DNA from: Patescibacteria group bacterium
GTDB lineage: Bacteria; Patescibacteriota; Minisyncoccia; UBA6257; UBA9933
DNA: 64,000 bases
Assembly: GCA_038065955.1 (NCBI GenBank)
Contig: JBBTPY010000006.1
Location: 7,626 to 71,625 of the forward strand
Direction of reading: 5' to 3'
In this document: positions 9,416-29,112 of the stretch, in pieces
How positions within the stretch are numbered: position 1 is the first letter of the stretch
Layout: each line of letters begins with the position of its first letter
Position numbers and translations under genes: made by a program
The notes under the pieces: model-generated
The model's input: only the letters and a program-made list of their open reading frames with translations
What the model was told of the DNA's origin: nothing
Databases searched by the model: none

Positions 9416-10909
9416 ATGAATTTTAAACGAATATTAAATATTTTAAATCCGCCGCTTCAAATCGGCGGTTTAGAAATTACGGATTTTGAATTAAGGTTCG
9501 TCGGTTTTAAAGGCGGCGCGCCTTTTTCAATTTCTTTAAAACTTGAGCCCGGGATTATTAAAGAAGGAGAAATTAAAAATACTGAAGCCTTTTTGAATAT
9601 TCTTTCTAAATTGCGTTTGGAAATAACTGGCGGCCGAAAGAAAAAAGTTTTCGCGGTCGTAATTATCCCGGACAATAATGTCTATGTTCAATCGTTTTAT
9701 TTGCCCGATGTTTCGGGCGAACGCCTTGAAGAAGCGGCCGAATTAAATTTACAGATGATTTCGCCGATAGAATATGGCGGCGCTTATTCCGATTGGCAGT
9801 TGGCGAACGGCGGCGAAAACGGCCGGTTGGAAGCGTTGGGAGTTTTTGCGCATAAAAAATTTATTGATGAAATAAATAAATTTTTAAAGCAAGCAGATTT
9901 TATGCCGGCGGCGATTGAATTTTCCGGCCTTTCTTTGGTTCGGTTGGCCGAGAATTCCGGCGCGGGCATTGACGTTTCAAAGCCTTATCTTTTGCTTCAT
10001 GTCGGCGGCAATGGTTTGAGTTTTAATCTTGTTAAAAATGGCAATCTTTATTTTAACCATTTTGTTTCCTGGCAGTCGGTTTATGAAGACAAGCGGGAAG
10101 TGCCCTTTGAGTCTTTTAAAAAATTAATTATTGAGGAAGTGAGGCGGATTTTGAATTTTTACGCCGCTCATTGGGACGGCCAGCTTGAAAACGCCGTTTT
10201 GGCGGCTCCCGGTTTGGTTGACGACATCGTTAAAGTCATTTCTGAAAATTTTGCTTTTAAAATTCAACCGCTTTCGCTTAAAAATTTTACGGATGTTTCG
10301 GCGGCTTGGTTTCCGGCTTTGGGAGCGGCATTTCGCGGTTTAATTCCGCGATCGCAGGATAATTTTATCGGCCTAAGGAAAGACGAGATTGAAAAAGAAT
10401 TTTACTTTGAAAAAGTAATCAGATTTATAAAAATATGGCGCAATGTCGTTTTAATGGCGTTTGCGGCGATGATTTTAATTTTCGGCGCCGCCGATTTGTT
10501 TTTAAAAAACACACTTAATTCTTTAAGCGCCCAAGCGGACGGTTTCAAAAATCGCGATGAAGTCAAATTGGTTGAATTGGAAAAATTTCAGAACCAAACC
10601 GGAGAAATCAATAAAAAAATAGATTTGGCGGTAAAATCTTATGGTGAGCGGCTGAGATGGTCTTTATTTTTGGAAAAAATTCGAGATTTGGCCGGCGCGG
10701 ATATTGTTATAGAAAAGATATTTATTCAATCGCCGGAGATGCCGGTTATTGTGAATGGGCTGGCGCCAGCCGAAAACGCCGCTTTGGATTTTAAAAAAAG
10801 GCTTATTGAAAGCGGATATTTCAATAATGTTGACCTTCCTGTTGATAAAATTATTCAAGCCGCCGGCGGCGTTAATTTTACGATCAATTTTATTCTTAAA
10901 AGTTTATAA
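9416..10909 (+). CDS. PilM-like actin-fold protein fused to a PilN-like membrane segment (type IV pilus alignment complex)
   Basis: ~350-aa cytoplasmic domain, then a TM helix ('VVLMAFAAMILIFGAADLFL'), then a ~120-aa C-terminal domain. Location in the pilus cluster supports the call. Confidence 0.45.
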   Translation: MNFKRILNILNPPLQIGGLEITDFELRFVGFKGGAPFSISLKLEPGIIKEGEIKNTEAFLNILSKLRLEITGGRKKKVFAVVIIPDNNVYVQSFYLPDVSGERLEEAAELNLQMISPIEYGGAYSDWQLANGGENGRLEALGVFAHKKFIDEINKFLKQADFMPAAIEFSGLSLVRLAENSGAGIDVSKPYLLLHVGGNGLSFNLVKNGNLYFNHFVSWQSVYEDKREVPFESFKKLIIEEVRRILNFYAAHWDGQLENAVLAAPGLVDDIVKVISENFAFKIQPLSLKNFTDVSAAWFPALGAAFRGLIPRSQDNFIGLRKDEIEKEFYFEKVIRFIKIWRNVVLMAFAAMILIFGAADLFLKNTLNSLSAQADGFKNRDEVKLVELEKFQNQTGEINKKIDLAVKSYGERLRWSLFLEKIRDLAGADIVIEKIFIQSPEMPVIVNGLAPAENAALDFKKRLIESGYFNNVDLPVDKIIQAAGGVNFTINFILKSL

Positions 10910-13477
<2,568 letters not shown>

Positions 13478-15134: not shown

Positions 15135-15224
15135 TGGCGGAGGGTAGAGGATTTGAACCTCTGAGGGGATTTCTCCCCAAGCGCATTTCGAGTGCGCCGC
15201 ACTAGACCACTATGCGAACCCTCC
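15135..15224 (-). tRNA. tRNA-Ser (anticodon CGA) with long variable arm; CCA encoded
   Basis: Minus-strand reverse complement folds as cloverleaf. Acceptor GGAGGGT/ACCCTCC; anticodon stem GCGCA/TGCGC with loop CUCGAAA; long variable arm; T-arm GGTTCAAAT. Confidence 0.8.
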
Positions 15225-15232
15225 ATGCCCTA

Positions 15233-15303
15233 TGCCCTCGCGAGGAATCGAACCTCGATTTTAGGTTTAGGAAACCCACGTCCTATCCGTTGAACGACAA
15301 GGG
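15233..15303 (-). tRNA. tRNA-Arg (anticodon CCT); CCA not encoded
   Basis: Reverse complement GCCCTTG...CGAGGGCA; anticodon stem TGGGT/ACCTA with loop TTCCTAA; T-arm GGTTCGATTCC. Confidence 0.75.
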
Positions 15304-15384
15304 CGGTTTGATTTAGTTTATCTTTTTTATTTGAAAGTTGCAATTAAATTAAATTTTAAGTAATATTTTCAATATATTTTAAGC

Positions 15385-15455
15385 GGGCCTATAGTAAAAT
15401 GGTATTACATCTCCATGGCATGGAGAAGGTAGGAGTTCGATTCTCCTTAGGTCCA
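15385..15455 (+). tRNA. tRNA-Ala (anticodon GGC) with G3:U70; CCA not encoded
   Basis: Acceptor GGGCCTA/TAGGTCC with G3-U70 wobble (Ala identity element); D stem GTAA/TTAC; anticodon stem TCTCC/GGAGA with loop ATGGCAT; T-arm AGGAGTTCGATTCTCCT. Confidence 0.75.
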
Positions 15456-15650
15456 CTGTATGATACTTCGAGCCGGAGAATTGCTGATTAAGCTCGAAGA
15501 TTACTGACAATTTTGCGGTTCCAAATCCTTTATTTCGCGTGTACGGAATTCCCTCAGATTTATATTGATTTTCCATTTTCATATTTATTCTCATTTTTCG
15601 GCTACTTTTGCATACAATCGGATATAGCCGTTATATACGATTTTGGGCTG

Positions 15651-15728: not shown

Positions 15729-16118
15729 ATGGCAAAAATCCATATCAAAAAGTTTTTACCCGACGGCGCTATTAACCCGGAGTATTTAGAGGAGTTGAAG
15801 CGTCGGACACTTATTCAAAGCACGGCTTCATCTTTGCGGCTTTCTGGCATTAAGATTACCGAGAAAGAAGTTGAACTAATTGTTAATCGCCCGGCGTCCA
15901 ATTCTGTTTTCCATAAAAACATAGAAAAGATTTTATCGCCAAAACAGCTGGCGGTTTTGAAGTATCTGCAAAGCGTGGAAGAAGCCGCTCCCGGCGAAAT
16001 TGCTAAAAAAGCAAAAGTTGCCAGACCCACAGTCAATCAAGCGTTAGACAAGCTTTTGCGCCTCAAAAAAGTCGAACGGATCGGCCTTGGAAGAAGTACG
16101 AGATATAGGAAATTATGA
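15729..16118 (+). CDS. Small winged-helix DNA-binding protein; N-terminal motif shared with ORF 27172
   Basis: C-terminal wHTH ('IAKKAKVARPTVNQALDKLLRLKKVERIG'). N-terminal 'RRTLIQSTASSLRLSGIKITEKEVELIV' is paralogous to 'RKTLIESTGASVRLSGLKITNEEVEKII' at 27172. Confidence 0.45.
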   Translation: MAKIHIKKFLPDGAINPEYLEELKRRTLIQSTASSLRLSGIKITEKEVELIVNRPASNSVFHKNIEKILSPKQLAVLKYLQSVEEAAPGEIAKKAKVARPTVNQALDKLLRLKKVERIGLGRSTRYRKL

Positions 16119-16220
16119 AAATAAAGGATTTACCAAAATCGGATAGGCCGCGGGAGAAGCTCGAGAAATATGGACCCGAGCGGCTTTCGAATTCATGGCT
16201 TTTGATGATAAATTAAAACT

Positions 16221-18113
16221 ATGAATAATAACGGCGTACATCGCAAAAAGGATTCGGCGCGGATTGTGTGGGATTCAAAGCCACATCGCGCGCCGAATCC
16301 GAAAGATATTGAATTTCAAACAGCCGAGGTGGTGATTCCGAACCCAGAAACCGCCGGGCAGTTGCCGATGTCTTTTCAGGATAGACTGCTGGGAGAGGAA
16401 GAACTAGACAAGCAAAAAATGAACCGCCTCATTTGGGGCGACAATCTGCTCGCGATGCAGGCGCTTTTGAATCAGGGGTACGAGGGCAAAATCAATCTCA
16501 TCTACATTGATCCGCCGTTTGATTCTAAAGCGGACTATTCGCATAAAATAAAGCTCGGCGAAACCGAATTTACCAAAGAGCCGAGCGTGATTGAGCGGCT
16601 TGCCTACAAAGACACTTGGGCCGGCGGCACGGATTCTTATCTTGATATGCTTTACCCACGCCTGCAACTAATGAAGCGGCTCCTGTCAGACAACGGATCG
16701 ATTTATGTGCATATTGGTGGTCATGTTAATGCTTACGTTAGACTATTGTTAGACGAAGTATTTGGCACAGACAACCTGATTAACGAGATCACGTGGTTTT
16801 ATAAAAATAAACTACAATCAAAACTATCTCAATTTTTCCCGAAAGATACCGAAAGTGTATTCGTTTTTGCAAAAAAATATGGCGATCATCAATTTCATCA
16901 TCAATATATTAAATTAGATGAGCCACGCAAACAAAATAAGATAAAATGGGATCCAGTCCACAAGAAGACTGTTACCGTAAAGGACGAAGCGGGCAATGTA
17001 GTTTATTATCAATCTGATCAAAAATTGATTGGCCAAATGTGGGAAATACCACGCGTCAATTCTATGGCAAAAGAAGACACGGGATATGATACACAAAAAC
17101 CACATGAGCTCATGGAAAGAATAATTAAAGCCGGTTCATCCGAGGGAGATTTAGTGGCAGATTTCTTTTGTGGGTCTGGTACCACACTTGCTCTTGCAGA
17201 AAAACTCAACCGCCGATGGATCGGGTGCGAATTGGGAAAAGTCGGCATACAAGTCACGCGGGGGCGGATGGTGGAGATGAAAAGCAAACCATTTCTGATT
17301 GAAAATATCGGCAATTATCAGCGCGAGATGATTTATCTGGGTGGCGCACGGATTTACGAGATGCAGAGAATTATTTTGAAACTCTACGGCGCGGAGCCGA
17401 TGGACGGGCGTAAAGATTTAGGCGTGAGAAAAACGGAGGATGGAACGCTGGAACTGGTCTATTGCGGCTATCCCGATAGGGCAGTTGCGGCGCATAAGGT
17501 GGAAGATTTGGCGAAGGAAGCGCAAATGCTTGATGGCACGGGCTACAAGAGACTCGTGATTCTGGCGTGGGATTATGAATACAATTATGACGAGCTTTTA
17601 CAAACGCGGATAAAAGCCGCGGGCAAGGATATAAAAACGGAAATTGTCAGCCGTCAGATTCCGCCGGACATTTACGAATACTTAAAACAAACAAAATCAG
17701 AAGAAGATATTGAGCGGTTTTCGGACAAAGTGAAGTTTTTAGAAAAACCGTATTTGAAGCTAAAAAAACCGAAAGTGAAAGACAATTCGGTTACTATCGG
17801 CATTGAAAAGTATGTGCTATATGATTTCCCGCTTGGAAGTGGCAAAAAAGCGGGCGAAGACCACCAACAACTGATGCGACTTGTCAAAGACAATTTCGCC
17901 ATTTTGATTGACTACTGGGCAGTGGATTGGGACTACGACGAATTGACCTTCAAAAGCCATTGGCAGGATTTGCGCGGGAATGGCCGAAAAGCAAAAGTAG
18001 TAGCAACAGAGAAAGAACATTCGTATGAAAAATCCGGGAAGCACACAATTGCCGTGCGCGTGGTGGACATTTTTGGCAACGATGCCACGGCTACGATTGA
18101 TATAAAGACATAA
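16221..18113 (+). CDS. mod: Beta-class N6-adenine/N4-cytosine DNA methyltransferase, Type III Mod-like
   Basis: Motif IV 'IYIDPPF' lies N-terminal to motif I 'DFFCGSGTTLALAEKL' (beta-class order). Middle region is variable (TRD-like). Immediately upstream of a Res-like helicase-nuclease. Confidence 0.8.
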   Translation: MNNNGVHRKKDSARIVWDSKPHRAPNPKDIEFQTAEVVIPNPETAGQLPMSFQDRLLGEEELDKQKMNRLIWGDNLLAMQALLNQGYEGKINLIYIDPPFDSKADYSHKIKLGETEFTKEPSVIERLAYKDTWAGGTDSYLDMLYPRLQLMKRLLSDNGSIYVHIGGHVNAYVRLLLDEVFGTDNLINEITWFYKNKLQSKLSQFFPKDTESVFVFAKKYGDHQFHHQYIKLDEPRKQNKIKWDPVHKKTVTVKDEAGNVVYYQSDQKLIGQMWEIPRVNSMAKEDTGYDTQKPHELMERIIKAGSSEGDLVADFFCGSGTTLALAEKLNRRWIGCELGKVGIQVTRGRMVEMKSKPFLIENIGNYQREMIYLGGARIYEMQRIILKLYGAEPMDGRKDLGVRKTEDGTLELVYCGYPDRAVAAHKVEDLAKEAQMLDGTGYKRLVILAWDYEYNYDELLQTRIKAAGKDIKTEIVSRQIPPDIYEYLKQTKSEEDIERFSDKVKFLEKPYLKLKKPKVKDNSVTIGIEKYVLYDFPLGSGKKAGEDHQQLMRLVKDNFAILIDYWAVDWDYDELTFKSHWQDLRGNGRKAKVVATEKEHSYEKSGKHTIAVRVVDIFGNDATATIDIKT

Positions 18114-18117
18114 TCCT

Positions 18118-20961
18118 ATGACAAAGAAAATCCACAATAATTTACTCAATGAATTACCGCTTGCCGCGATACTTGCACCGGAAGTAAAGGCGTGGGCGGA
18201 TCAGGGCTGGCAAGGCGTAACGCAGACGACCTACGAACTTTTGGCGTATTGGTTTAATCGTGGGGAAGAAGACGGCGATGGATTTCATAAATGTCAGCGC
18301 CGTGCGGTGGAGACGATTATTTACTGCCATGAAGTTTTGGGTATTGAAACACTCAAACAGGCATTTGAAAGATTTGCTCCCGAAGCGTTGGCGGCAAGCG
18401 CGGCTCTTTCGGAAGAAGTGCAGAATTTACCTTTTGCGAAATATTGTCTCAAAATGGCAACCGGTACCGGCAAGACATGGGTTTTGGCCGCACTTTTAGT
18501 ATGGCAATATTTCAACGCCCTGAACGGCGAGCGGCCGGGAAAATATTCCTCACATTTTTTGCTCGTTGCGCCTGGACATGAGGTATTGAATCGTTTGCTG
18601 GATATGTTTTTAGGAAAGCATAACCCGAAAACCGGCAATCGCGACAAATCAAAATCGGATTTTGAGCGACCGCTTTTTATACCAGAGGGCGAGCGGTTTC
18701 GCAATCGTTTTAATCTGCAAGTTTTGGAACCGGCGGACATCCGACCAAATCTTACGCCGCCGGACGAGCCGTTTGTGTATATCACTAACTGGCAGCAGTT
18801 TCGTTTGAACGAATCCAGCAACTTATGGGATCAACTAACTGGCGCTGATGTGGAGGAACAGCCGCGCGGCGAAATCATTGCCGATTTTCTTTCCGAGTAT
18901 TCAGATTTAATTATTTTCAATGACGAGGCGCACCATGTCCATGGCGCTAAAACCGCTAAAGGCGAGGAGTTGGTGTGGCGGAAATTCTTAACCGCTCTGT
19001 ATAACCGAATGGCGGAAAAGCGCGGCGATGAGAAAGGCGTATTTTTACAAATTGATTTTTCCGCTACGCCATTTTATGGCAGCGCGGAGAAAAAAGAGTA
19101 CTTCCCCCATATCGTCTATGATTTTGATTTAGTGGAAGCGATGCGGGCGATGCTCGTGAAGCAGATATTTTTGGAAGAACGGCAGGGAATGATGGGCGAG
19201 AAAATGGATGACCTTGATGTGCGCGCCGAACGAGCCGAAGCCGACGACGAACACCGGCGCGGGCAAGTTATCGGTGTTTCCGTGAGCCAGAAACTGCTTT
19301 TAGACATCGGCAGAAAAAAGATGGAGCAGATCGCCGTGGAATTTCGCGAAAAAGGACTGGATAAAAAACCGGTGCTTTTCGTGCTTGCGGAAAATACCGA
19401 GGTGGCTGATTTGGTTGCCGAGCATTTGGCAAATTTGACCGACGAGCGTGGCAGAAACTATCGCAATCAAGTTCTTGTAATTCACTCTGATAAAAAAGGC
19501 GAAATGAGCGACAAGGATTGGGAAAAGTATCGCCAGCAGTTGGAAACGCTAGATGAGCCAGAGGAAATAAACCAGATTCGCGTCGTGGTAAGCGTCTTGA
19601 TGTTGCGCGAGGGTTTTGACACTCAAAATGTGGCGGTGGTAGTGGTTTTGCGGAGCGCGAAAGCTGATCTCCTTTTGGAACAGATTGTCGGGCGCGGCGT
19701 ACGACTGATGTTCCCGGAATACAAATACCCAGAACTTGCGGACTTGAAGCGAGAGGCGCGGGAAGATGTGATGCGAAAGCGCGCGCCGAAAAACTCTTTG
19801 GACTTTTTGTTTGTTGTTGAACACCCAAAATTTCGAGGTTTCTATGAAGAATTACAGAAACAGGGATATGCGATTGGTATTGGCGATTCGTCGAGCACGG
19901 AAACAACCGGCGATTTGATTTTGTCGGAAGCCACACCCGAAAGAATTAAAAAATACGATCTCTCTTGGCCGATACAGGTATATGAACAGTCGCCGAAGTT
20001 TGATTTTTCCGCCATAGGCATTTCGGGGTTACCGAAGTATTCCATTCCGTTTGAGATGCTCAAAAAACAACTTTCCCAAATCTCCATCACAGAAACACAC
20101 GCCGAGACGGGTGGAAAAATAAAAACATGGAAACTGGACAATCAGTATTTTGATTACGCCCATTTCTTGCGCCAAGCAACAATCGCGGTGGCTTCCGAGC
20201 GCGGCACGAACACACTCACTAGCAAGATGGCAGATATTACCGGAATTATTGACGAGTATGTAAGTAATTATTTATTCGGCGGCGAGATTGACTTTCAGAA
20301 GGCCGAAAATTATACGGTCCTCAATTACGCACCGCTTTTTGATTTTGTTGTCGGGAGCGTCAAGCGAGTATTGTTGGATGGCTTGGGTAAAATTCAATAC
20401 GAAGTGAAAGCGGGAAAAGTTGGCAGGTTGAGCGATATAAAAAAGATTTATGTGCGGCAATCGCTATCTGTGCCGGTGGAGCGGTGTATTTATCCGCTCG
20501 CCGGATATTCGCGGCGAGGTGAAGGATTTGAGAAAAAGTTTATGGAGGAAACTTTGGATAAATCCACCGAGGTGGAAGCGTTTGGAAAAATTCAACAGAG
20601 AAAACACCTGCTCAACATTTCCTATCGGGACAAAGACGGAATCAAGCGCGACTATTTCCCCGACTTCGTTATCAAGATAAAAGACAAAATGTATATCGTG
20701 GAAACGAAAGCCGAGGACGAAATACAGAAGGCGGAAGGCAACGAAAAGAATTTGATCGTTTTGAAGGCGCGCGCGGCCGTGAGTTGGTGCAAAACAGCAA
20801 GTCAAATATCGCTCCCGAACCAGCCGCAGGAATGGGAGTATTTTATGTTATCTGAAAAGACATTCAATGAAAACCGGCAATTGGGCTTTGATGCGCTGGC
20901 CGACTTGGGTAGATTGGATTTGGAGCGGCTTTTGACGAGTGAAGCGGGGAAGCTGTTTTGA
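18118..20961 (+). CDS. res: Type III restriction enzyme Res subunit (SF2 helicase plus PD-(D/E)xK nuclease)
   Basis: Walker A 'MATGTGKTWV'; DEAH box 'IIFNDEAHHV'; downstream helicase motifs; C-terminal 'DFVIKIKDKMYIVETKAEDE' nuclease core. Confidence 0.8.
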   Translation: MTKKIHNNLLNELPLAAILAPEVKAWADQGWQGVTQTTYELLAYWFNRGEEDGDGFHKCQRRAVETIIYCHEVLGIETLKQAFERFAPEALAASAALSEEVQNLPFAKYCLKMATGTGKTWVLAALLVWQYFNALNGERPGKYSSHFLLVAPGHEVLNRLLDMFLGKHNPKTGNRDKSKSDFERPLFIPEGERFRNRFNLQVLEPADIRPNLTPPDEPFVYITNWQQFRLNESSNLWDQLTGADVEEQPRGEIIADFLSEYSDLIIFNDEAHHVHGAKTAKGEELVWRKFLTALYNRMAEKRGDEKGVFLQIDFSATPFYGSAEKKEYFPHIVYDFDLVEAMRAMLVKQIFLEERQGMMGEKMDDLDVRAERAEADDEHRRGQVIGVSVSQKLLLDIGRKKMEQIAVEFREKGLDKKPVLFVLAENTEVADLVAEHLANLTDERGRNYRNQVLVIHSDKKGEMSDKDWEKYRQQLETLDEPEEINQIRVVVSVLMLREGFDTQNVAVVVVLRSAKADLLLEQIVGRGVRLMFPEYKYPELADLKREAREDVMRKRAPKNSLDFLFVVEHPKFRGFYEELQKQGYAIGIGDSSSTETTGDLILSEATPERIKKYDLSWPIQVYEQSPKFDFSAIGISGLPKYSIPFEMLKKQLSQISITETHAETGGKIKTWKLDNQYFDYAHFLRQATIAVASERGTNTLTSKMADITGIIDEYVSNYLFGGEIDFQKAENYTVLNYAPLFDFVVGSVKRVLLDGLGKIQYEVKAGKVGRLSDIKKIYVRQSLSVPVERCIYPLAGYSRRGEGFEKKFMEETLDKSTEVEAFGKIQQRKHLLNISYRDKDGIKRDYFPDFVIKIKDKMYIVETKAEDEIQKAEGNEKNLIVLKARAAVSWCKTASQISLPNQPQEWEYFMLSEKTFNENRQLGFDALADLGRLDLERLLTSEAGKLF

Positions 20962-20965
20962 ATTT

Positions 20966-21085
20966 ATGATAGAAAAACAAACAAAAGTCCGCGACTACGA
21001 AAAACAAATTGACCAGCTCGTCTATAAACTCTACGGCCTCACCCCGGAGGAGATTAAAATTGTTGAGAATAATAATAAAAAATGA
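20966..21085 (+). CDS. 39-aa ORF ending in a 'LYGLTxEEIKIVE'-type motif (remnant of an RM-methylase C-terminal tail, or a small coupled peptide)
   Basis: ATG 5 nt after the res stop. Its stop overlaps the next ATG (ATGA). Sequence 'MIEKQTKVRDYEKQIDQLVYKLYGLTPEEIKIVENNNKK'. Confidence 0.3.
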   Translation: MIEKQTKVRDYEKQIDQLVYKLYGLTPEEIKIVENNNKK

Positions 21086-21801
21086 CCACCGAGGATTACA
21101 ATTTATATAAATTACTTATCGAAGCGATAATAGCAATCGTCTCTCTTTTAGTTGGTGGAGTAATGGGTATTTATGTAGAAAATAGGTGGAAAATAGTGAA
21201 AAAAGTTAAAAGCCGCATAAATCAGAAAGGTTATGTAAATCAAGCAGTCGAAGTTATTGATAGTCCGCATTCTTCTCCTCAAAATGCTGGTGGCGATGCA
21301 CTTAGACAAGAAGGCGCGGGGGTTCTTGCATCCATTAAAGATAGCCCAGGTGCCTCAATAAACTTTGCGAATAATGAACCCAGGGTCGGGAGCCCCGATG
21401 AAGCTCTTGGGACAAGTTCTTTGCCCACGGAAAGTGAGCGTATTTCTTTGAGTTCGAATCAGGCGCATATTTATCAGAAAGTTCAAGAAATTCTCCAAAA
21501 ACTGAATAAAAACACTACTTTTGCAGCCAGATACCAAAATGCAATCCGTCATTTGAACAGTAATAATGCACAGGTCTGTGCTTCTGAATATCACAGCGCC
21601 TTTCTCGATGTCGTTCCAATTATTTTAGAGCGTTCCACATATGGCAGTTCTGCTCCTACAAAAGATAATTTGGACGCTCTGAACAAATCTTTTGAACAAA
21701 TCCGAGTATTTATGAACACCTCTTCTCACGACGATGCAACGCTGGGAAATACTCTAAAAAGCTTTGAGGATGCCATTCTAATTTTACTTGGTTATCTATG
21801 A
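21082..21801 (+). CDS. Membrane-anchored hypothetical protein (239 aa) in the RM-linked operon
   Basis: N-terminal TM helix, Pro/Ser-rich linker, alpha-helical C-terminal domain. Start and stop codons overlap the flanking genes. Confidence 0.4.
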   Translation: MTTEDYNLYKLLIEAIIAIVSLLVGGVMGIYVENRWKIVKKVKSRINQKGYVNQAVEVIDSPHSSPQNAGGDALRQEGAGVLASIKDSPGASINFANNEPRVGSPDEALGTSSLPTESERISLSSNQAHIYQKVQEILQKLNKNTTFAARYQNAIRHLNSNNAQVCASEYHSAFLDVVPIILERSTYGSSAPTKDNLDALNKSFEQIRVFMNTSSHDDATLGNTLKSFEDAILILLGYL

Positions 21802-24800
21802 ATCAAATCGGATTACACAAAAAAATAGACGAGTTGCTGACAAGGGGGCCTGCTGAAGCAAAGCGTGAGGATATCTCTGCTTTGGCTTCAGCTAATCAGG
21901 ACGCACATCAATACTTTTTCACCAAGGCGGATGAGCGTTGGCTTGATTGGCTTTGGGAAAACGGATTTTTGAATGTCGTCAAGCAAAAAGCAGAAGATCC
22001 GACACGCTATGGCTATAGGACGCCGGAGATTAATTATCTTGTGAAAGTTTCCGAGAGAGAGCCAACCAAGGTGGTTGATATTATGCTTGAGGTGCCAATT
22101 TCTGCCGAGAATTTTAACCCCGAAGTAGTGGATAGATTCTTACGCATCTGCAGCGGCCTGCCGGCACCAGAGCTCAAGCGGGTAGTAAAGAAGATCCGTG
22201 ATGAAAGATGGGTTTCGCTTATGGGAGCTTTCAATGATTGGGGTTTTGAGTATGAAAAAATGCTTAAAACATTAACAGAGGCCAGCGACTTTAATAGCGT
22301 TCTTGCTATTGCCGAGGCAATACTTTCCGTGAGAACAAAGGAAGAGGCGGAAAAAACTTCACGCGGATTTTTATCTGATAACCCCTTCTACTTTAAAGAG
22401 CTAAGTTATACAAAAGTATTTGAGTACCTGCTTAAGATAGATGAGAAAAATATAGAGAAAGCGCTTACTCTAATGACCAACGCAATGAAGCAGGTAGTGC
22501 TCTTCGGGGAAAAAGATCATAAAGACGAGGTGTTTAAAGTTTATGATAGTTACTTTTTATTGGATGTAGATTTTTTTGAGCTTGAACTTACCGAGAAAGA
22601 CAGGCTTTCACACGGGGACGATGTTAAAAATCTCGCAGCCGTTATTAAGCATTATGCAGAACAAACCATAGGACAACAGTGCAACAACGAAGAGTTGATC
22701 ACAAAATTATATGATAAGTATTTTGAGCCATTGCCAGATAGCCGTTCTATGTGGCGTCTGCGATTGTTTGTGTTGAGCTTGTGTCCCGAAGCGTTTAAGA
22801 AAAAGCTCAAAAAAGCGTTCTTCCGATTGTTTGAGGTCGAGCGTTATTATAACGAGTTGATTTCTGGCACAGAATATCTAAAAGCATTACGCGTCGGATT
22901 TCCTGTTTTATCTGATACTGATAAGCGTGATTATGTAAAACGGGTCATAGAGTATTTTACAAAAAAAGACCGAGAAAAGGAGAACGAAAAAGAAAATTGG
23001 CACATAGGGTACGGCTCGAGGATTCTTTCAGTAATAGCCGATCAGCTTACTGAAGAAGAAAAACAAGTAGCTGAAAAAGCTAAATTTACCATCCGTTCTA
23101 ATTACGAACCAGAGCCGTCTATAAAAATGGGTGGATTTGCCGGCAGTATAAGGCCGAGAGGTCCGACTACCCAAGAAGCATTTGGGAAACTTCCGATAGA
23201 TGATATTGCACAAAAATTAAGAACTGAATGGAAACCAGAGAAGTTAAGAGAAGAAAACACAAATGAAGATTTTCACAACCCATTAAATGCCGAGGGTGCC
23301 GGCGAATTGTTGCGTATAGATATTTCTAAACGACTGCAAGATTATGTAAACAATGCCAACCTCTTCTTTGAACGGGGTGTATTGGATCAGCATTATACTT
23401 ATTCTTTTCTGCGAGGCATACAGGAGATTCTTCGCGGCAATAAAGCTGATTCTGGCAATATAAATTGGGATAACTTATTAGCTCTCTGTATCACAATAAA
23501 GGAATCTGGTGAGTCCAATCCTTTCGATAATGAAAGGCGCGAACGAGATAGTTTTGATGCGTGGCTTTCTGGCTGGACAGGCGTTCATTCTGCCATGACG
23601 GATGTTGTCCAAGAACTATTAAGTGAAGAAAGAAGTGTTAAAATCGATTTTCCTAAACATCGCGACAAATTTTTAGTGATTATGAGTTATCTACTCGCTT
23701 ATCCCGATCCGATTCCAGCTGATGAAGAGCCGAAAACGGCGACAATGACCACGACTTCTCCCGGCGCGCAAGAACAGATGGTGAGCGATCCGTATTCAAT
23801 GGCAATCAATACAGTGCGTGGCCGAGCATTTCAGGCTTTTGCGCTATTTATGTATCAAGACGGAAAGAAGTTTCCTAAGGAAGAAAAAGTAAAAATTTCT
23901 CCCGATGTAAAAGAGTTGTATGAGGCAGTTCTAAAAAAAGAGCAGACCCGTGCCCTTATGTTTATGTTCGGGCACTATCTGCCATCGTTCTATTTCCGAG
24001 ACAATGAATGGATACAAGGGCTATTCTCGCAGATTTTCCCCGTAGAGTCAGAAAAGAAAAACCTTTATACGGCATCTTGGGAGGGTTATGTCTCAGCCAA
24101 TCTTTATGAGGAGATATTCTTTAATCCAGAAATTCAAAAACTCTATGAACGAGGCCTCGCATTAACAGATGCGGATTATCCAAAGCAAAAGCATTTCAAA
24201 GAGCCGGATGAAGGTGTTGCTGTTCACATTGCGCTCGCTTTTATGCATTTCTCAAAATTTGGCTTTGAGCACGATCTATTCAAAACATTCTGGAGTACGC
24301 CAAATACAGAAAATCATAAAGAGTTCATTTCGTTTATTGGTCGTCATTCTATCTCACGAGAATCGGCTGCGGAATGGATAAAATATAACAAGGTTGATAT
24401 AGAGAAGCTTAAGAAATTCTGGGATTGGGCACTTGAAAACTGCAGCGCCGATGCGCTAATAGGTTTTGGTTTTTGGATCAATACAGAACGCAGTGCGCTG
24501 GATACAAAATGGCTCGCCCGGCATGCGCGCCAAACGCTCGAAAAGACAAAAGGATATGTCGAGTGGGAATATGGATTGATGCGCTCGCTCATGGCATTTG
24601 CTAAAGAAGCGCCGGAAGATACGCTTGCGATTTTGCGTGCTCATATTTTTGAAGAGGTGGCAAAACATGAGCCGGTTAGAACTTGGCTTCACATGGATAC
24701 CGAGGTTTATGACGCTTTCCGAGAACTCTATAAAAATGAGACGACCAAAGAAGGTGTTCGCACACTTATCAACGATCTCTTGCCATACCGCAACGGTATG

Positions 24801-24839
24801 TTTTGGGGGTTGAAGACGATATTAGACGAAACCAAATAA
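21798..24839 (+). CDS. Large (1013 aa) hypothetical alpha-helical protein, RM-associated, no recognisable catalytic motif
   Basis: Uninterrupted ORF translationally coupled to the upstream gene. No Walker, HD, DEAD or nuclease motifs found by eye. Composition and GC match the res/mod genes. Confidence 0.45.
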   Translation: MNQIGLHKKIDELLTRGPAEAKREDISALASANQDAHQYFFTKADERWLDWLWENGFLNVVKQKAEDPTRYGYRTPEINYLVKVSEREPTKVVDIMLEVPISAENFNPEVVDRFLRICSGLPAPELKRVVKKIRDERWVSLMGAFNDWGFEYEKMLKTLTEASDFNSVLAIAEAILSVRTKEEAEKTSRGFLSDNPFYFKELSYTKVFEYLLKIDEKNIEKALTLMTNAMKQVVLFGEKDHKDEVFKVYDSYFLLDVDFFELELTEKDRLSHGDDVKNLAAVIKHYAEQTIGQQCNNEELITKLYDKYFEPLPDSRSMWRLRLFVLSLCPEAFKKKLKKAFFRLFEVERYYNELISGTEYLKALRVGFPVLSDTDKRDYVKRVIEYFTKKDREKENEKENWHIGYGSRILSVIADQLTEEEKQVAEKAKFTIRSNYEPEPSIKMGGFAGSIRPRGPTTQEAFGKLPIDDIAQKLRTEWKPEKLREENTNEDFHNPLNAEGAGELLRIDISKRLQDYVNNANLFFERGVLDQHYTYSFLRGIQEILRGNKADSGNINWDNLLALCITIKESGESNPFDNERRERDSFDAWLSGWTGVHSAMTDVVQELLSEERSVKIDFPKHRDKFLVIMSYLLAYPDPIPADEEPKTATMTTTSPGAQEQMVSDPYSMAINTVRGRAFQAFALFMYQDGKKFPKEEKVKISPDVKELYEAVLKKEQTRALMFMFGHYLPSFYFRDNEWIQGLFSQIFPVESEKKNLYTASWEGYVSANLYEEIFFNPEIQKLYERGLALTDADYPKQKHFKEPDEGVAVHIALAFMHFSKFGFEHDLFKTFWSTPNTENHKEFISFIGRHSISRESAAEWIKYNKVDIEKLKKFWDWALENCSADALIGFGFWINTERSALDTKWLARHARQTLEKTKGYVEWEYGLMRSLMAFAKEAPEDTLAILRAHIFEEVAKHEPVRTWLHMDTEVYDAFRELYKNETTKEGVRTLINDLLPYRNGMFWGLKTILDETK

Positions 24840-24843
24840 TTTT

Positions 24844-25161
24844 ATGGACGAAGAAAAAGAGCGGCAAAAAGAAATAAGAGAAAAATTAGAAAGCGAGGGG
24901 CTTGACCCGGACGAATTTGACGAGGAAGAGCGCGAAGAACTCGCCACAGACGAATCACTGCAGAATGTTGTAGCGAACAATGTCCGACAAAGCTCCGAGC
25001 TTGAATTTAAAGGGGTTTTCAACGGCAAGGTTGACGATCAATTTGAAATTGACCGCAAATTGTGGGAACAGCTTACGAATAATCCCGAATTAAATAAGTA
25101 TATTGAGAAAAAAATGTTTAAGTATGTAGCCGATAAGATTTTAGCATTGCGAGAGGAGTAA
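24844..25161 (+). CDS. Small acidic hypothetical protein (105 aa), last gene of the RM-linked operon
   Basis: Starts 4 nt after the previous stop. N-terminal half is very acidic (E/D-rich). Confidence 0.35.
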   Translation: MDEEKERQKEIREKLESEGLDPDEFDEEEREELATDESLQNVVANNVRQSSELEFKGVFNGKVDDQFEIDRKLWEQLTNNPELNKYIEKKMFKYVADKILALREE

Positions 25162-25635
25162 ATTTTAAGACCCGCCTTTTAGTGACGGGCCTAAGGGTGG
25201 AATCGGGAGATGTATCACGAGCAATCTTTGACTTTACCTCTCCAGAGCCGATTAATCTGTTTTTTTGTGTGTAAGAATGCCTGATATACTGCGTATGGGG
25301 GGAGGACGCCATTCTTGAGGTGAGTTGCCCGATTGGTACCGAACCATTCTTCCGACCTTATTTGTGCTTGGTGTGGCCGTGGCCGGGCTTAGGAACGCGT
25401 TCGACAACATGGGTACGGGGATTGTTTCGCGCTTTCTGGACGGTAGTTAACCTGCCGGTATTTGCGCTGCGGCCACGAAGAGTAGTTTTATGAGCCATTT
25501 TAATTTTCCATCTTAATTTTTAATAAATCGACCTTTTATACTTCCATTTTTAAACCTATTTTACTTGTTGTCAAGGAGTTTTACTTATCCACTTGACAAG
25601 GTTTCTTTACAGGAGTAATATGGTAGTATAAATAC

Positions 25636-26418
25636 ATGGCTACAAACCTATACAAAAAAATAAAGGAGTTGCGTGAGCAAAACAAATTTTCTCAAGAGTA
25701 TCTGGCGGAACAACTCAAGGTCTCCCGTCCTACTTATATGCAGGTTGAAAAGGGCGAGCGAGACATTACCGTACCGGAGGCAAGAAAGCTTGCTCTGGTT
25801 TTTGGCGTGAGTTTAGAAGATTTTCTCGGCGAAGAAGTTTCAGCGCTTCCCGATGTGGTTTTAAAGAAAGAAAAAGCCAAAGAGAAAGAAAGCGATATCC
25901 GCATTATTATGCCTCGAGCGGATGTAAAAAAGTTCAAAGAAGTGCTTCTCTATGTTTTAAGCAAGATTGGAGCAAAACCGAACATTGGAGAGACCGCCCT
26001 CTACAAACTTTTGTATTTTATTGACTTTGATTTCTATGAGAAGTTTGAAGAACAGCTTACCGGGGCGCGATACATAAAAAATCATTACGGCCCCACGCCG
26101 GTTGAATTCAAGAAGATCGTTGAAGGGATGGAGAAAAAAGGAGAGGTTGAGCGCGTTAAATCGAGTTACTTTCAGTACGACCAAAAAAAATATCTGCCGC
26201 GCAGAGAACCCGATCTAAAGAATCTCTCGGCGCAGGAAATTAAACACATTGACGAAGTTCTCGCCCGATTATCAGATAAGAACGCCAACGAGCTGTCCGC
26301 CTATTCGCATAGCGATGTGCCATGGAGAGTACACAAAGCTGGAGAGACGATCAGCTACGAAAGCGTATTTTACCGAGACGAGGATCACTCTGTAAGAAAT
26401 TACGACGATGAACTTTAG
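25636..26418 (+). CDS. HTH-XRE plus Panacea (DUF4065/SocA-like) domain antitoxin
   Basis: N-terminal XRE helix-turn-helix ('SQEYLAEQLKVSRPTYMQVEKGER'). C-terminal 'TALYKLLYFIDFDFYEKFEEQLTGARYIKNHYGPTP' matches the Panacea core. Confidence 0.6.
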   Translation: MATNLYKKIKELREQNKFSQEYLAEQLKVSRPTYMQVEKGERDITVPEARKLALVFGVSLEDFLGEEVSALPDVVLKKEKAKEKESDIRIIMPRADVKKFKEVLLYVLSKIGAKPNIGETALYKLLYFIDFDFYEKFEEQLTGARYIKNHYGPTPVEFKKIVEGMEKKGEVERVKSSYFQYDQKKYLPRREPDLKNLSAQEIKHIDEVLARLSDKNANELSAYSHSDVPWRVHKAGETISYESVFYRDEDHSVRNYDDEL

Positions 26419-26752
26419 TGAAACCAATGAATTTTCAAAAGATTTCAAGCGACTCTCAAAAAAATATAGATCCCTGCCGGATGATTTGCTTGAATTCAAA
26501 AAGATCATATCAGAAATTCCTCTCGGTAGTGGGAAGCACTTTGTAGTGCTTCACGAAAACGAGGAGGTGAAAATTCTAAAGGCGCGCCTATTCTGTAAAT
26601 ATCTCAGGGGCGCGTCTTTGCGTATTATCTACGCATATCGTGAGACTACGGCAACGATTGATTTCATCGAGATTTATTATAAGGGTGAGCAGGCAAACGA
26701 AACTAAGGGCCTGATTAATGACTTTCTGCGCGAGTTAAATAAAAATGGATAA
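26408..26752 (+). CDS. RelE/ParE-superfamily type II toxin
   Basis: Overlaps the antitoxin stop (ATGA). '...LRIIYAYRETTATIDFIEIYYKGEQ' resembles the RelE/HigB/ParE C-terminal region. Confidence 0.55.
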   Translation: MNFSETNEFSKDFKRLSKKYRSLPDDLLEFKKIISEIPLGSGKHFVVLHENEEVKILKARLFCKYLRGASLRIIYAYRETTATIDFIEIYYKGEQANETKGLINDFLRELNKNG

Positions 26753-27171: not shown

Positions 27172-27531
27172 ATGAGATTGGCCACAAGCGGAAACAAGCG
27201 TTATACCAACAATATGGCAAAAAGGACTACAAAAAAACTCCATTCCGATGATAGGTTCAATACTGATTTTTGGAGAGAGCAGAGGAGGAAGACATTGATT
27301 GAGAGCACAGGAGCGTCCGTGCGGCTTTCTGGTTTAAAAATTACCAACGAGGAGGTGGAAAAAATTATTGATTCTGACAAGAGTAAAAAACTGTACCAAT
27401 GCTCGGAGTGCGGCTTCCACTATGCCGAGATGGAATGGGCAGAGAAATGCGAGGCGTGGTGCCGGAAACATAAGAGTTGCAATATCGAGATCACCGCTCA
27501 TGCCGAGGAAAACAAGAAGCCGGGTAAGTAA
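27172..27531 (+). CDS. Hypothetical protein with N-terminal motif paralogous to ORF 15729 and a C-terminal zinc-ribbon
   Basis: 'TLIESTGASVRLSGLKITNEEVEKII' shared with 15729; C-terminal 'CSECGFHYAEMEWAEKCEAWCRKHKSC'. Confidence 0.4.
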   Translation: MRLATSGNKRYTNNMAKRTTKKLHSDDRFNTDFWREQRRKTLIESTGASVRLSGLKITNEEVEKIIDSDKSKKLYQCSECGFHYAEMEWAEKCEAWCRKHKSCNIEITAHAEENKKPGK

Positions 27532-27588: not shown

Positions 27589-29112
27589 ATGAAAACTATA
27601 AAATCTATTTTTATTTCGATCCTATTTATTCCTGTTTTGGCTTTTGCCCATGAGCCGGCGGCATTGCCAAATGCAGGGCTTACTCCCGAAAGCGCTTTTT
27701 ACTTTGTTGATAAACTCGGCGAAGCATTGCGCGAATTCTTCACTTTTAACCCGGAGGCAAAAGCCCATCTTCAGATTGATTTTGCCGCCGAGCGAATCGC
27801 TGAGATAAAAATTATCTTAGAGACCAAGGGCGTGAATGCCAAGGGGTTAGAGGTGGCTCAATCCCGGCTTCAGGCAAACATTGCCAAGGCCGCTGGTATT
27901 ATTGAAGGCGAAAAATCCAAAGGGAAAGACGTAAGCGAGCTCGCAAAAAGCATTAGCGATGATTTTGATGCAAACAAAGAAGCCCTCAAGCAAGCTTTCA
28001 AAGATCAAGAACGCGCTCTTGAGGCAAAAGAAGACGAGCTTAAAGCAAAAATCCGCGAGGCAAGACGGGCCGGCGATACCGCTCAAGTTGAGGCGTTGGT
28101 AAAAGAACTCGGTGAAATTAAGGCTCAAAAAGAACTCTTGGAGCTCAAAGAAGAAGAGCAGGAAGATGCCTTAGAACAAGAAGAAGAAAAGATTGAAAGG
28201 GAGATGGATAAAAAGGAAGACGCGGAAAAGGCCATAAAAGAAGTTGAAGAGGAAAAGCAGGAATTGTTAGGTATAGTGGTTATGGATGGGAGTGGAGGTG
28301 ACGACATGACAGGGATAGTGGTCATGGACGGGAGCGGAAGCGATGACCTGTCGCAAATTTTTACTAAATTTGACCGACTACTTGCCCAAGCGAAAGAACT
28401 CTTTGCCAAAGAGAATTATGTCGGGGCAAAGCAATTAGCCAAGCAGGCAGAAAAAATCCTTGACGAGGTAGAAGACGCCATTGAAGATTTAGAAGAAGCG
28501 AAAGAAGAGGAAGATGAGTTGAAAGAAGAACAAGAAGAACAAACGAAGGAGGGGGCTGAAAAAGAAGCCGAGCGTTTAGAAAATGGGCAAAGACAAAAAG
28601 AAGCCGAAAAACAGCAAGAAGAAGCCGAGGAGCAAAGTAACGAAGCAGGTGGGGCACGGATTGTAAATCCTACGGAAAATCCATCAACCAGTAGTAATCC
28701 GCCAACGGCAAAAGACACCGGTGACTATACATTTACGATCACGGGCCGTGTGACGGATAATACATACGACCCTTCGGGAATGACGGACGGTGTTCTAGCG
28801 CCCGCTGGCGTTGTCATTCGCGCCATTGGTCCTAAAACAGTTACGACACAAACACGAACTGACGGTTCCTATACTCTCTCTTTCACGAACACGCCGCTCG
28901 GCACTTATGATGTGTGCATAACTCCTCCTTCTGGATATACGACGAATCCACTCTCCATTTCGAATTCAGAGTCAGGATGCGATAATGTGGTTGTACGATT
29001 ACGCAATGATACAACCCTTGATTTCTTTTATGGTGGTGGGCGCGCATCCCACGCGACCATTTATTTCGACTTACGGCGTACGGGGTCAGCCGAAAAGCCC
29101 ATCAACTGGTAG
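27589..29112 (+). CDS. Secreted E/K-rich coiled-coil protein with internal tandem repeat and C-terminal beta-rich (carboxypeptidase-regulatory/Ig-like) domain
   Basis: Signal peptide 'MKTIKSIFISILFIPVLAFA'; long charged helical region; duplicated 'GIVVMDGSG(G/S)DD' module; Thr/Gly-rich C-terminal ~150 aa. Confidence 0.45.
   Translation: MKTIKSIFISILFIPVLAFAHEPAALPNAGLTPESAFYFVDKLGEALREFFTFNPEAKAHLQIDFAAERIAEIKIILETKGVNAKGLEVAQSRLQANIAKAAGIIEGEKSKGKDVSELAKSISDDFDANKEALKQAFKDQERALEAKEDELKAKIREARRAGDTAQVEALVKELGEIKAQKELLELKEEEQEDALEQEEEKIEREMDKKEDAEKAIKEVEEEKQELLGIVVMDGSGGDDMTGIVVMDGSGSDDLSQIFTKFDRLLAQAKELFAKENYVGAKQLAKQAEKILDEVEDAIEDLEEAKEEEDELKEEQEEQTKEGAEKEAERLENGQRQKEAEKQQEEAEEQSNEAGGARIVNPTENPSTSSNPPTAKDTGDYTFTITGRVTDNTYDPSGMTDGVLAPAGVVIRAIGPKTVTTQTRTDGSYTLSFTNTPLGTYDVCITPPSGYTTNPLSISNSESGCDNVVVRLRNDTTLDFFYGGGRASHATIYFDLRRTGSAEKPINW

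Follow-up and report, generated by a model that had tools for sequence, protein, structure and literature searches.

A modular two-gene unit with a DSR1-like solenoid protein follows a Type III restriction–modification operon in a Patescibacteria group bacterium

The locus considered here is an 8.9-kb block of six co-oriented open reading frames (ORFs) in a 64,000-nucleotide stretch of DNA (the window) from a Patescibacteria group bacterium (assembly GCA_038065955.1, contig JBBTPY010000006.1, positions 7,626 to 71,625 of the forward strand). A preliminary description of this DNA had placed the six ORFs at coordinates that prove exact (Table 1), and the tight spacing that it noted holds at all five junctions. 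Gaps of 4 nt separate mod from res, res from the 39-aa ORF and the 1013-aa gene from the 105-aa ORF, and the 39-aa/239-aa and 239-aa/1013-aa junctions are ATGA overlaps. The block had been viewed as one compound defence system in which Mod/Res cooperates with four unknown proteins, loosely in the manner of BREX or DISARM. It is instead made of three layers: a Type III restriction–modification (RM) operon, a separate modular unit formed by the 239-aa and 1013-aa genes, and two recombination scars. The two-gene unit is probably a DSR1-like sensor–effector module, most plausibly of the abortive-infection kind, that is co-expressed with RM systems but not specific to them.

Table 1. Features of the six-ORF block and its flanks, in window coordinates
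Feature	Coordinates	Strand	Product or remark
RadC N-terminal fragment	16116-16220	+	34 codons, MKIKDLPKSDRPREKLEKYGPERLS..., read from sequence
mod	16221-18113	+	630 aa
res	18118-20961	+	947 aa
39-aa mini-ORF	20966-21085	+	Eco57I/Type IIG-type tail remnant
Conserved tail element	20974-21073		Within the 39-aa mini-ORF
Segment exchanged in partner swaps	21073-21797		
Partner gene	21082-21801	+	239 aa; candidate effector/adaptor
Large alpha-solenoid gene	21798-24839	+	1013 aa; candidate sensor/scaffold
105-aa chimeric ORF	24844-25161	+	Acidic mini-ORF and HsdR-like tail
Three tRNA genes	15135-15456		Ser-CGA, Arg-CCT, Ala-GGC
129-aa ORF	15729-16118		Winged helix
Stretch without long ORF	25162-25635		474 nt; GC 0.435; promoter-like strong divergent sites at 25574 (-) and 25593 (+)
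Overlapping gene pair	25636-26752		260-aa and 114-aa proteins
119-aa ORF	27172-27531		Zinc ribbon
507-aa protein gene	27589-29112		Signal-peptide-like start

The 239-aa and 1013-aa genes constitute a conserved and widespread two-gene module. For the family of the large protein, a word-indexed search gave 601 matches and an exhaustive one gave 1,467 clusters at 50% identity; all members that carry a name from their source are called hypothetical. The module was examined at 17 genome loci, at 80 metagenome loci (of at least 80 found via two peptide patterns) and on several looked-up contigs. Locus counts are given after removal of duplicates at 95% identity, and RM labels were assigned from Pfam results together with local profile propagation. 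At distinct loci where the two genes are unfused, an ORF of 165–348 aa (mostly 175–240 aa) abuts or overlaps the large gene in 42 of 44 cases; at 24 of 68 distinct loci the large protein instead carries an N-terminal extension in place of that ORF. Stand-alone partners group with the fused extensions in one homology cluster (59 of 65 sequences), which provides a Rosetta-stone link between partner and solenoid. Both forms occur among relatives of about 80% identity (L003, 82%; DNA 81%). In two long family members, P0263 and P0144, the N-terminal partner domain is tandemly duplicated.

The module appears to be cellular rather than phage-borne, as 2.9 million viral contigs gave a single match and a phage collection gave none. 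No earlier description of it was found in the searchable literature. It is unlikely to be identical to the Patescibacteria-only ‘Dallas’ or LdgA defences (PMC12366544), a judgement made from 2-kb average inserts and not from their sequences. Two of the examined loci, L016 and L017, share an overlap of ∼14 kb that is identical in gene maps and match coordinates, yet were deposited under two metagenome-assembled genomes, one of Azambacteria and one of Flavobacteriaceae. One of them is probably mis-binned, and similar errors may affect the Gammaproteobacteria labels given to other loci.

The large protein supplies the connection to a known defence system. As first described, it is all-helical, and AlphaFold2 (AF2) models it confidently as an all-alpha solenoid (pLDDT 88.8) whose top fold matches are eukaryotic HEAT scaffolds. 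Residues 458–850 match the PADLOC Dsr1 profile PDLC04166 at positions 737–1076 of 1227 (1.6e-17). The same profile is matched by 26 of 47 relatives, with a best value of 1.1e-25, on the C-terminal part of the model. These profile matches link the C-terminal half of the protein by homology to the C-terminal region of DSR1. Phage detection in both DSR1 and DSR2 falls to the C-terminal domain, which activates an N-terminal SIR2 domain (10.1101/2024.02.11.579819; PMC10973363). Searches with Pfam, NCBIfam and PADLOC found no SIR2 domain in the 239-aa or the 1013-aa protein, and none of 120 listed homologues has a recorded Pfam domain. Distant relatives of the C-terminal half of the solenoid (∼23% identity) are plasmid proteins of 789–1510 aa, encoded on Legionella conjugative plasmids (L108), where the copy is flanked by IS elements, and on haloarchaeal plasmids (L109 and L110). 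These plasmid relatives are without Pfam domains and gave no pointer to effectors.

The partner of the window begins with the strongly hydrophobic N-terminus that the preliminary description had recorded (Kyte–Doolittle 2.45). This hydrophobic helix is followed by a disordered linker of ∼100 residues and a five-helix C-terminal domain; the AF2 model of the protein is unreliable (pLDDT 47). It represents a small divergent subtype with nine database homologues, in which H157, E169, Y170, H171, S215, H216 and D217 are invariant, and it is among the only 10 of 65 partners that possess an N-terminal hydrophobic helix. The main partner domain is marked by a conserved NPDW..Q.A.SLRE motif and a near-invariant His, and the collinear order of motifs suggests that the window partner is kin to this main family. 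The sole family matched repeatedly is pP_pnuc_1 (PF18165), which weakly matches 18 of 65 partner or N-terminal domain sequences. The full-length fused protein P0263 scores 26.6 bits against it, just reaching the gathering score. Partners are also exchangeable. In L027, L028 and L029, where the large gene is 82–84% DNA-identical to that of the window, the partner is replaced by unrelated-looking variants. The breakpoints of this swap lie exactly at gene boundaries, and ∼100 nt upstream are kept at 91–92%.

Together, these features point to a sensor–effector arrangement. The solenoid would sense a cue of infection, for which a phage protein is the likeliest candidate, and would then govern the small helical domain at the N-terminus, or the separate partner, positioned in the slot that SIR2 fills in DSR1. 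The window partner could then be a membrane-anchored variant of this effector slot, and abortive infection or growth arrest would be the likely outcome. Fused family members are laid out like DSR1, with a small N-terminal domain ahead of the solenoid (N-effector/C-sensor). However, DSR1 has SIR2 and the module has none; its N-terminal slot holds a helical domain of ∼190 residues that is often a separate gene. DSR1 is moreover a stand-alone single gene that depletes NAD+, whereas the module consists of two genes or a SIR2-less fusion and is usually appended to RM operons. With DSR2 and Avs (STAND) proteins the module shares only a generic repeat fold, as it is without NTPase, SIR2 or sequence similarity to them.

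The preliminary description had asked whether the accessory genes travel with Mod/Res. The 239-aa/1013-aa pair does travel with RM systems, but with those of any class and not with Mod/Res in particular, and its place is directional, at the 3′ end of the operon. Where at least 3 kb of upstream flank is available (n = 55), a co-oriented RM gene lies within three genes of the pair in 35 loci; six have only an opposite-strand methyltransferase (MTase) and 14 have no RM gene nearby. Downstream flanks of at least 3 kb (n = 42) contain co-oriented RM genes within three genes of the pair in three loci, all Mrr-type, and an opposite-strand RM gene in three. With both flanks of at least 3 kb (n = 39), co-oriented RM genes at that distance are found only upstream in 22 loci, only downstream in none and on both sides in two. 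The difference between the upstream and downstream sides is highly significant (Fisher p = 5e-9; paired p = 5e-7), and a separate Pfam scan of 96 downstream genes found just three N6_N4 methylases and three Mrr nucleases. The median gap between the upstream gene and the pair is 5.5 nt. The worry that homologues of the 1013-aa protein might mostly lack RM neighbours is thus dispelled by these counts.

The 35 upstream systems comprise split PLD-SNF2 helicase plus Eco57I-type MTase systems (nine loci), Type III and Type II systems (six each), Type IIG and Type I systems (five each), Type ISP-like systems (three) and one other. Their turnover is fast. At loci where the large gene is 74–84% DNA-identical to that of the window, the upstream RM system differs in each and the partner type varies too, and the RM system varies even where the large protein is ∼71–87% identical in amino acids. 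Non-RM neighbours are often defence-type genes, including those for a caspase-like protease, a KAP NTPase, AAA_15, GmrSD and Mrr; at least two of the 14 loci without a nearby RM gene have the pair amid housekeeping genes. In one subclade (L023:13019-13723, L025:13022-13714, L040 and L079), the large gene is followed, 4–6 nt on, by one for an Mrr_cat nuclease of ∼230 aa whose N-terminus is hydrophobic, and a DpnII-type Type II system lies upstream of the pair.

Under the preferred reading, the sensor–effector module would be co-transcribed and translationally coupled with whichever RM operon lies upstream, and would act as a second defence layer behind restriction. A different relationship is that of a guard, in which the pair watches the upstream restriction enzyme and fires when phage anti-restriction blocks it, following the logic of PrrC and EcoprrI, or senses restriction products such as DNA ends. 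Its strict, co-oriented and closely spaced position downstream of RM operons fits this idea, as do the Type IIG tail element kept beside the pair after loss of the enzyme (see below) and the Mrr-type nuclease behind the pair in one subclade. Nonetheless, we consider a guard unlikely. The six upstream RM classes have no common subunit, and anti-restriction proteins are usually class-specific. The model is further weakened because the pair shows no RM-class specificity, because 14 of the 55 loci have no nearby RM gene, some with pairs amid housekeeping genes, and because RM type switches among closely related large proteins, so that co-evolution is not seen. Nor is the pair fused to an RM subunit in any of 270 family members. 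PrrC of the EcoprrI Type I RM locus (reviewed in PMC12707154) is similar as a non-RM gene that is co-located and co-expressed with RM and plausibly serves as a back-up. It differs in having ABC-ATPase and anticodon-nuclease domains, neither of which Pfam, NCBIfam or PADLOC detects in any protein of the block, and in sitting inside one Type I family, whereas the module is found at the 3′ end of all RM classes and also without RM.

The RM layer of the window itself is intact. Mod is a beta-class Type III DNA methyltransferase (Pfam N6_N4_Mtase, 5.9e-49; PADLOC MTase_III, 1e-91, full length), with the motif IV sequence DPPF at residue 97 preceding the FxGxG motif I sequence FCGSG at residue 316. 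Res matches ResIII, Helicase_C and a C-terminal TnsA-like endonuclease domain of the PD-(D/E)xK type in Pfam. It also matches PADLOC REase_III (1.7e-19) and the NCBIfam BPTD_3080-family restriction endonuclease (3e-70, under the family cutoff), and it carries the motifs GTGKT, DEAH, SAT, QIVGRGVR and PDFV...ETK. The beta-class motif order of Mod and the SF2 helicase and PD-(D/E)xK nuclease of Res, encoded on the same strand and adjoining mod, are those of a Type III system. The domains and complete catalytic motifs thus bear out the original naming of the two genes as an intact, canonical Type III RM pair. It resembles EcoP15I-like Mod/Res in domains, motifs, gene order and adjacency, with no essential difference; the nearest relative of the window Res is the BPTD_3080 family, though below its cutoff.

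GC content divides the block in two. It is 0.460 for mod and res together (0.444 and 0.471, respectively) and 0.412 for the other four ORFs (20966-25161), compared with 0.409 ± 0.036 for the whole window. The earlier observation that the block exceeds its flanks in GC is therefore correct for mod/res; the other four ORFs lie near the window mean and below the downstream flank (0.450). The mod/res genes appear to have entered as a cassette, as indicated by their raised GC, by a radC gene cut after 34 codons on the left and by the Type IIG tail on the right. The RadC fragment is 83.5% DNA-identical to the start of the intact radC (220 aa) found ahead of mod in L028 (L028:1294-1956), and would be the left scar of an RM cassette replacement whose right edge is the Type IIG tail. 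In L104 (6547-8322), RadC is fused to a Dcm methylase. The fragment in the window, the intact gene in L028 and this fusion show that RadC recurs 5′ of such RM operons. Three tRNA genes lie directly to the left of the block, and tRNA clusters are typical island insertion sites. Integration at a tRNA was nevertheless rejected, as a search within 20 kb found no direct repeat derived from a tRNA. The region is bracketed by the 129-aa winged-helix and 119-aa zinc-ribbon ORFs, which share a homologous N-terminal domain of ∼60 residues (44% identity, E 1e-16).

The first recombination scar is the 39-aa ORF, all that is left here of an Eco57I/Type IIG-type enzyme, namely its stranded C-terminal tail. 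Its product ends in ...QIDQLVYKLYGLTPEEIKIVE, and its stop codon overlaps the start of the partner gene. PADLOC aligns it with four Type IIG models, in each case over the last ∼30 positions alone (best 5e-08); only those ∼30 residues remain of the nuclease, N6_Mtase/Eco57I and TaqI_C domains that make up a Type IIG enzyme of ∼900–1200 aa. In related loci, intact Eco57I/TaqI_C enzymes encoded directly upstream of the pair have this peptide as their true C-terminus, and intact genes with all domains hold this position in L001, L005, L009 and L016. At the DNA level, the conserved element is 91% identical to the 3′ end of an intact Eco57I-type gene in L027 and 92% identical to an intergenic remnant in L028. 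An independent small-protein family, considered as an alternative identity for the 39-aa ORF, was rejected.

Tail pieces of 50–65 nt persist before the pair without an Eco57I-type gene in L028 (after a Type III res), in L003 and L018 (no co-oriented neighbour) and in L020 (housekeeping genes). In 20 of 67 distinct loci, no more than 13 nt separate the end of the element from the pair start, and only two matches are further from a pair start (L020 and L051). Most of these relics keep an in-frame ATG near the KLYGLTPEEIKI core, in which codon differences are mostly synonymous. The retained mini-ORF may therefore serve translational coupling. Mostly synonymous changes could also reflect independent recent origins of the relics and are not conclusive for selection. 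A general ‘RM companion’ builds on the same element: the pair would be an immune module that depends on its coupled RM system, of whatever class, and senses failed restriction or DNA products, with the tail mini-ORF as a coupling device for plugging in behind any RM operon. We regard such dependence as unlikely.

The element has yet another possible use. If the pair were non-immune, it might be a selfish or housekeeping element with a function unrelated to phage, for example a cassette that is expressed from RM operons and recombines through the Type IIG tail. Partner exchange at exact gene boundaries next to a conserved flanking junction element does suggest cassette-like mobility, recognised catalytic domains are absent and certain loci are amid housekeeping genes. 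The homology to the DSR1 sensor region argues against such a cassette, as do the frequent defence-type neighbours outside RM and a patchy distribution with rapid turnover of context that is typical of defence genes. Integrases or recombinases are near the pair in few loci (L018, L021; two Resolvase matches), with no consistent link. A non-immune role is accordingly judged quite improbable.

The second scar is the 105-aa ORF, a chimera of an acidic mini-ORF and an HsdR-like tail. Codons 1–34 correspond to an acidic mini-ORF of 37 aa found behind the large gene in the closest relatives; L027, L028 and L089 encode MDEEKERQKEIREKLESEGLDPDEFDEDEQEELADLL and a stop codon at this position. The acidic character initially ascribed to the protein thus belongs to its N-terminus. 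Codons ∼31–105 are the C-terminal tail of an HsdR-like gene, joined at a shared EELA. The homologues found in databases correspond to the ends of longer proteins. P0281 matches residues 31–105 at 97% identity, and three more carry the source name ‘type I restriction enzyme R subunit’, so that the label HsdR comes from source annotations and not from a domain test. Relative to a complete HsdR of ∼1000 aa with HSDR_N nuclease and SF2 helicase, only ∼75 C-terminal residues are present. BLASTP gave no match between this tail and the PF11867-type HsdR proteins of related loci, which indicates an origin in a different HsdR-like family. No counterpart follows the pair at loci other than the closest relatives. 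Proposals that the protein is a conserved third component or a DNA mimic were rejected, given its chimeric make-up and the lack of such a counterpart. In L028, the 37-aa acidic mini-ORF occurs twice (9587-9697 and 13131-13241), 3.5 kb apart, as if bordering a cassette.

Sequence from the HsdR-like tail to ∼27170 is absent in L027, where the acidic mini-ORF directly precedes a homologue of the 119-aa protein. In the window, the first 474 nt beyond the block lack a long ORF. They gave no Rfam match even at E ≤ 1, on which an RNA element was rejected, and three short ORFs on the minus strand, which lie in different frames, point to a decayed gene. The overlapping pair that follows encodes two proteins: an XRE-HTH protein of 260 aa that contains a SocA/DarG-like antitoxin region, and one of 114 aa. 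This pair is a probable toxin–antitoxin module and is absent at the equivalent place in L027. Farther downstream, the 507-aa protein has a long acidic coiled-coil and a duplicated GIVVMDGSG.DD motif.

These scars bear directly on the six-gene system with which the analysis began. Its attraction is clear, with six co-oriented ORFs joined by 4-nt gaps or overlaps, no internal promoter or terminator that is convincing above chance, and homologues of the pair that usually adjoin RM genes. BREX and DISARM likewise combine a methyltransferase and large uncharacterised proteins within one tightly packed operon. However, the possibility that the accessory genes are fragments of decayed genes turned out to hold for two of the four, so that ‘four unknown proteins’ overstates the count, and the 105-aa ORF has no counterpart beyond the closest relatives. 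Unrelated RM systems replace Mod/Res where the large gene is 82–84% DNA-identical, and GC sets mod/res apart from the remainder of the block. None of the BREX and DISARM signature proteins PglZ, BrxC, PglX, DrmA, DrmB and DrmC/DrmD was detected: PADLOC returned only RM models and Dsr1 for the six proteins. Here, unlike in BREX or DISARM, a complete canonical Type III system forms the RM part, and the accessory pair is interchangeable between RM types. A single compound system is thus largely refuted and very improbable. Close gene spacing gave two recombination scars the look of system components, which is a caution for reading such operons.

Several points count against a DSR1-like sensor–effector module. 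Similarity to Dsr1 is limited to residues 458–850, leaving the first ∼450 residues of the large protein without a match, and a fold search with its model recovered no solved DSR1-like structure. A catalytic signature was found in neither the 239-aa nor the 1013-aa protein. All 18 matches to pP_pnuc_1 are below its gathering score of 26.3 bits (best 1.6e-4), the window’s own partner has no match to it, and the family is defined as a ‘predicted pPIWI-associating nuclease’ whose nuclease activity is itself only predicted. The 239-aa protein may be the unfused form of the N-terminal extension, but direct BLASTP was negative, and comparison with the main partner family by hhalign gave probabilities of 5.5% and then 18%, so homology is not significant. 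The related loci are not phylogenetically independent, were sampled via two peptide patterns and have gene calls from a simple longest-ORF procedure. Finally, RM adjacency could partly reflect the dominance of RM in the small defence repertoire of Patescibacteria.

Even with these reservations, a DSR1-like module appended to RM operons remains the probable reading. If it is correct, DSR1-type sensors would be reusable with a non-sirtuin partner, often encoded by a separate gene, thereby extending the effector-swapping logic of Avs, pAgo and CBASS systems. Patescibacteria have tiny genomes and few recognised defences beyond RM. These bacteria would gain a large, wholly unannotated defence family, and the co-oriented position of the module behind every RM class would make it a testable case of operon-level layered immunity.

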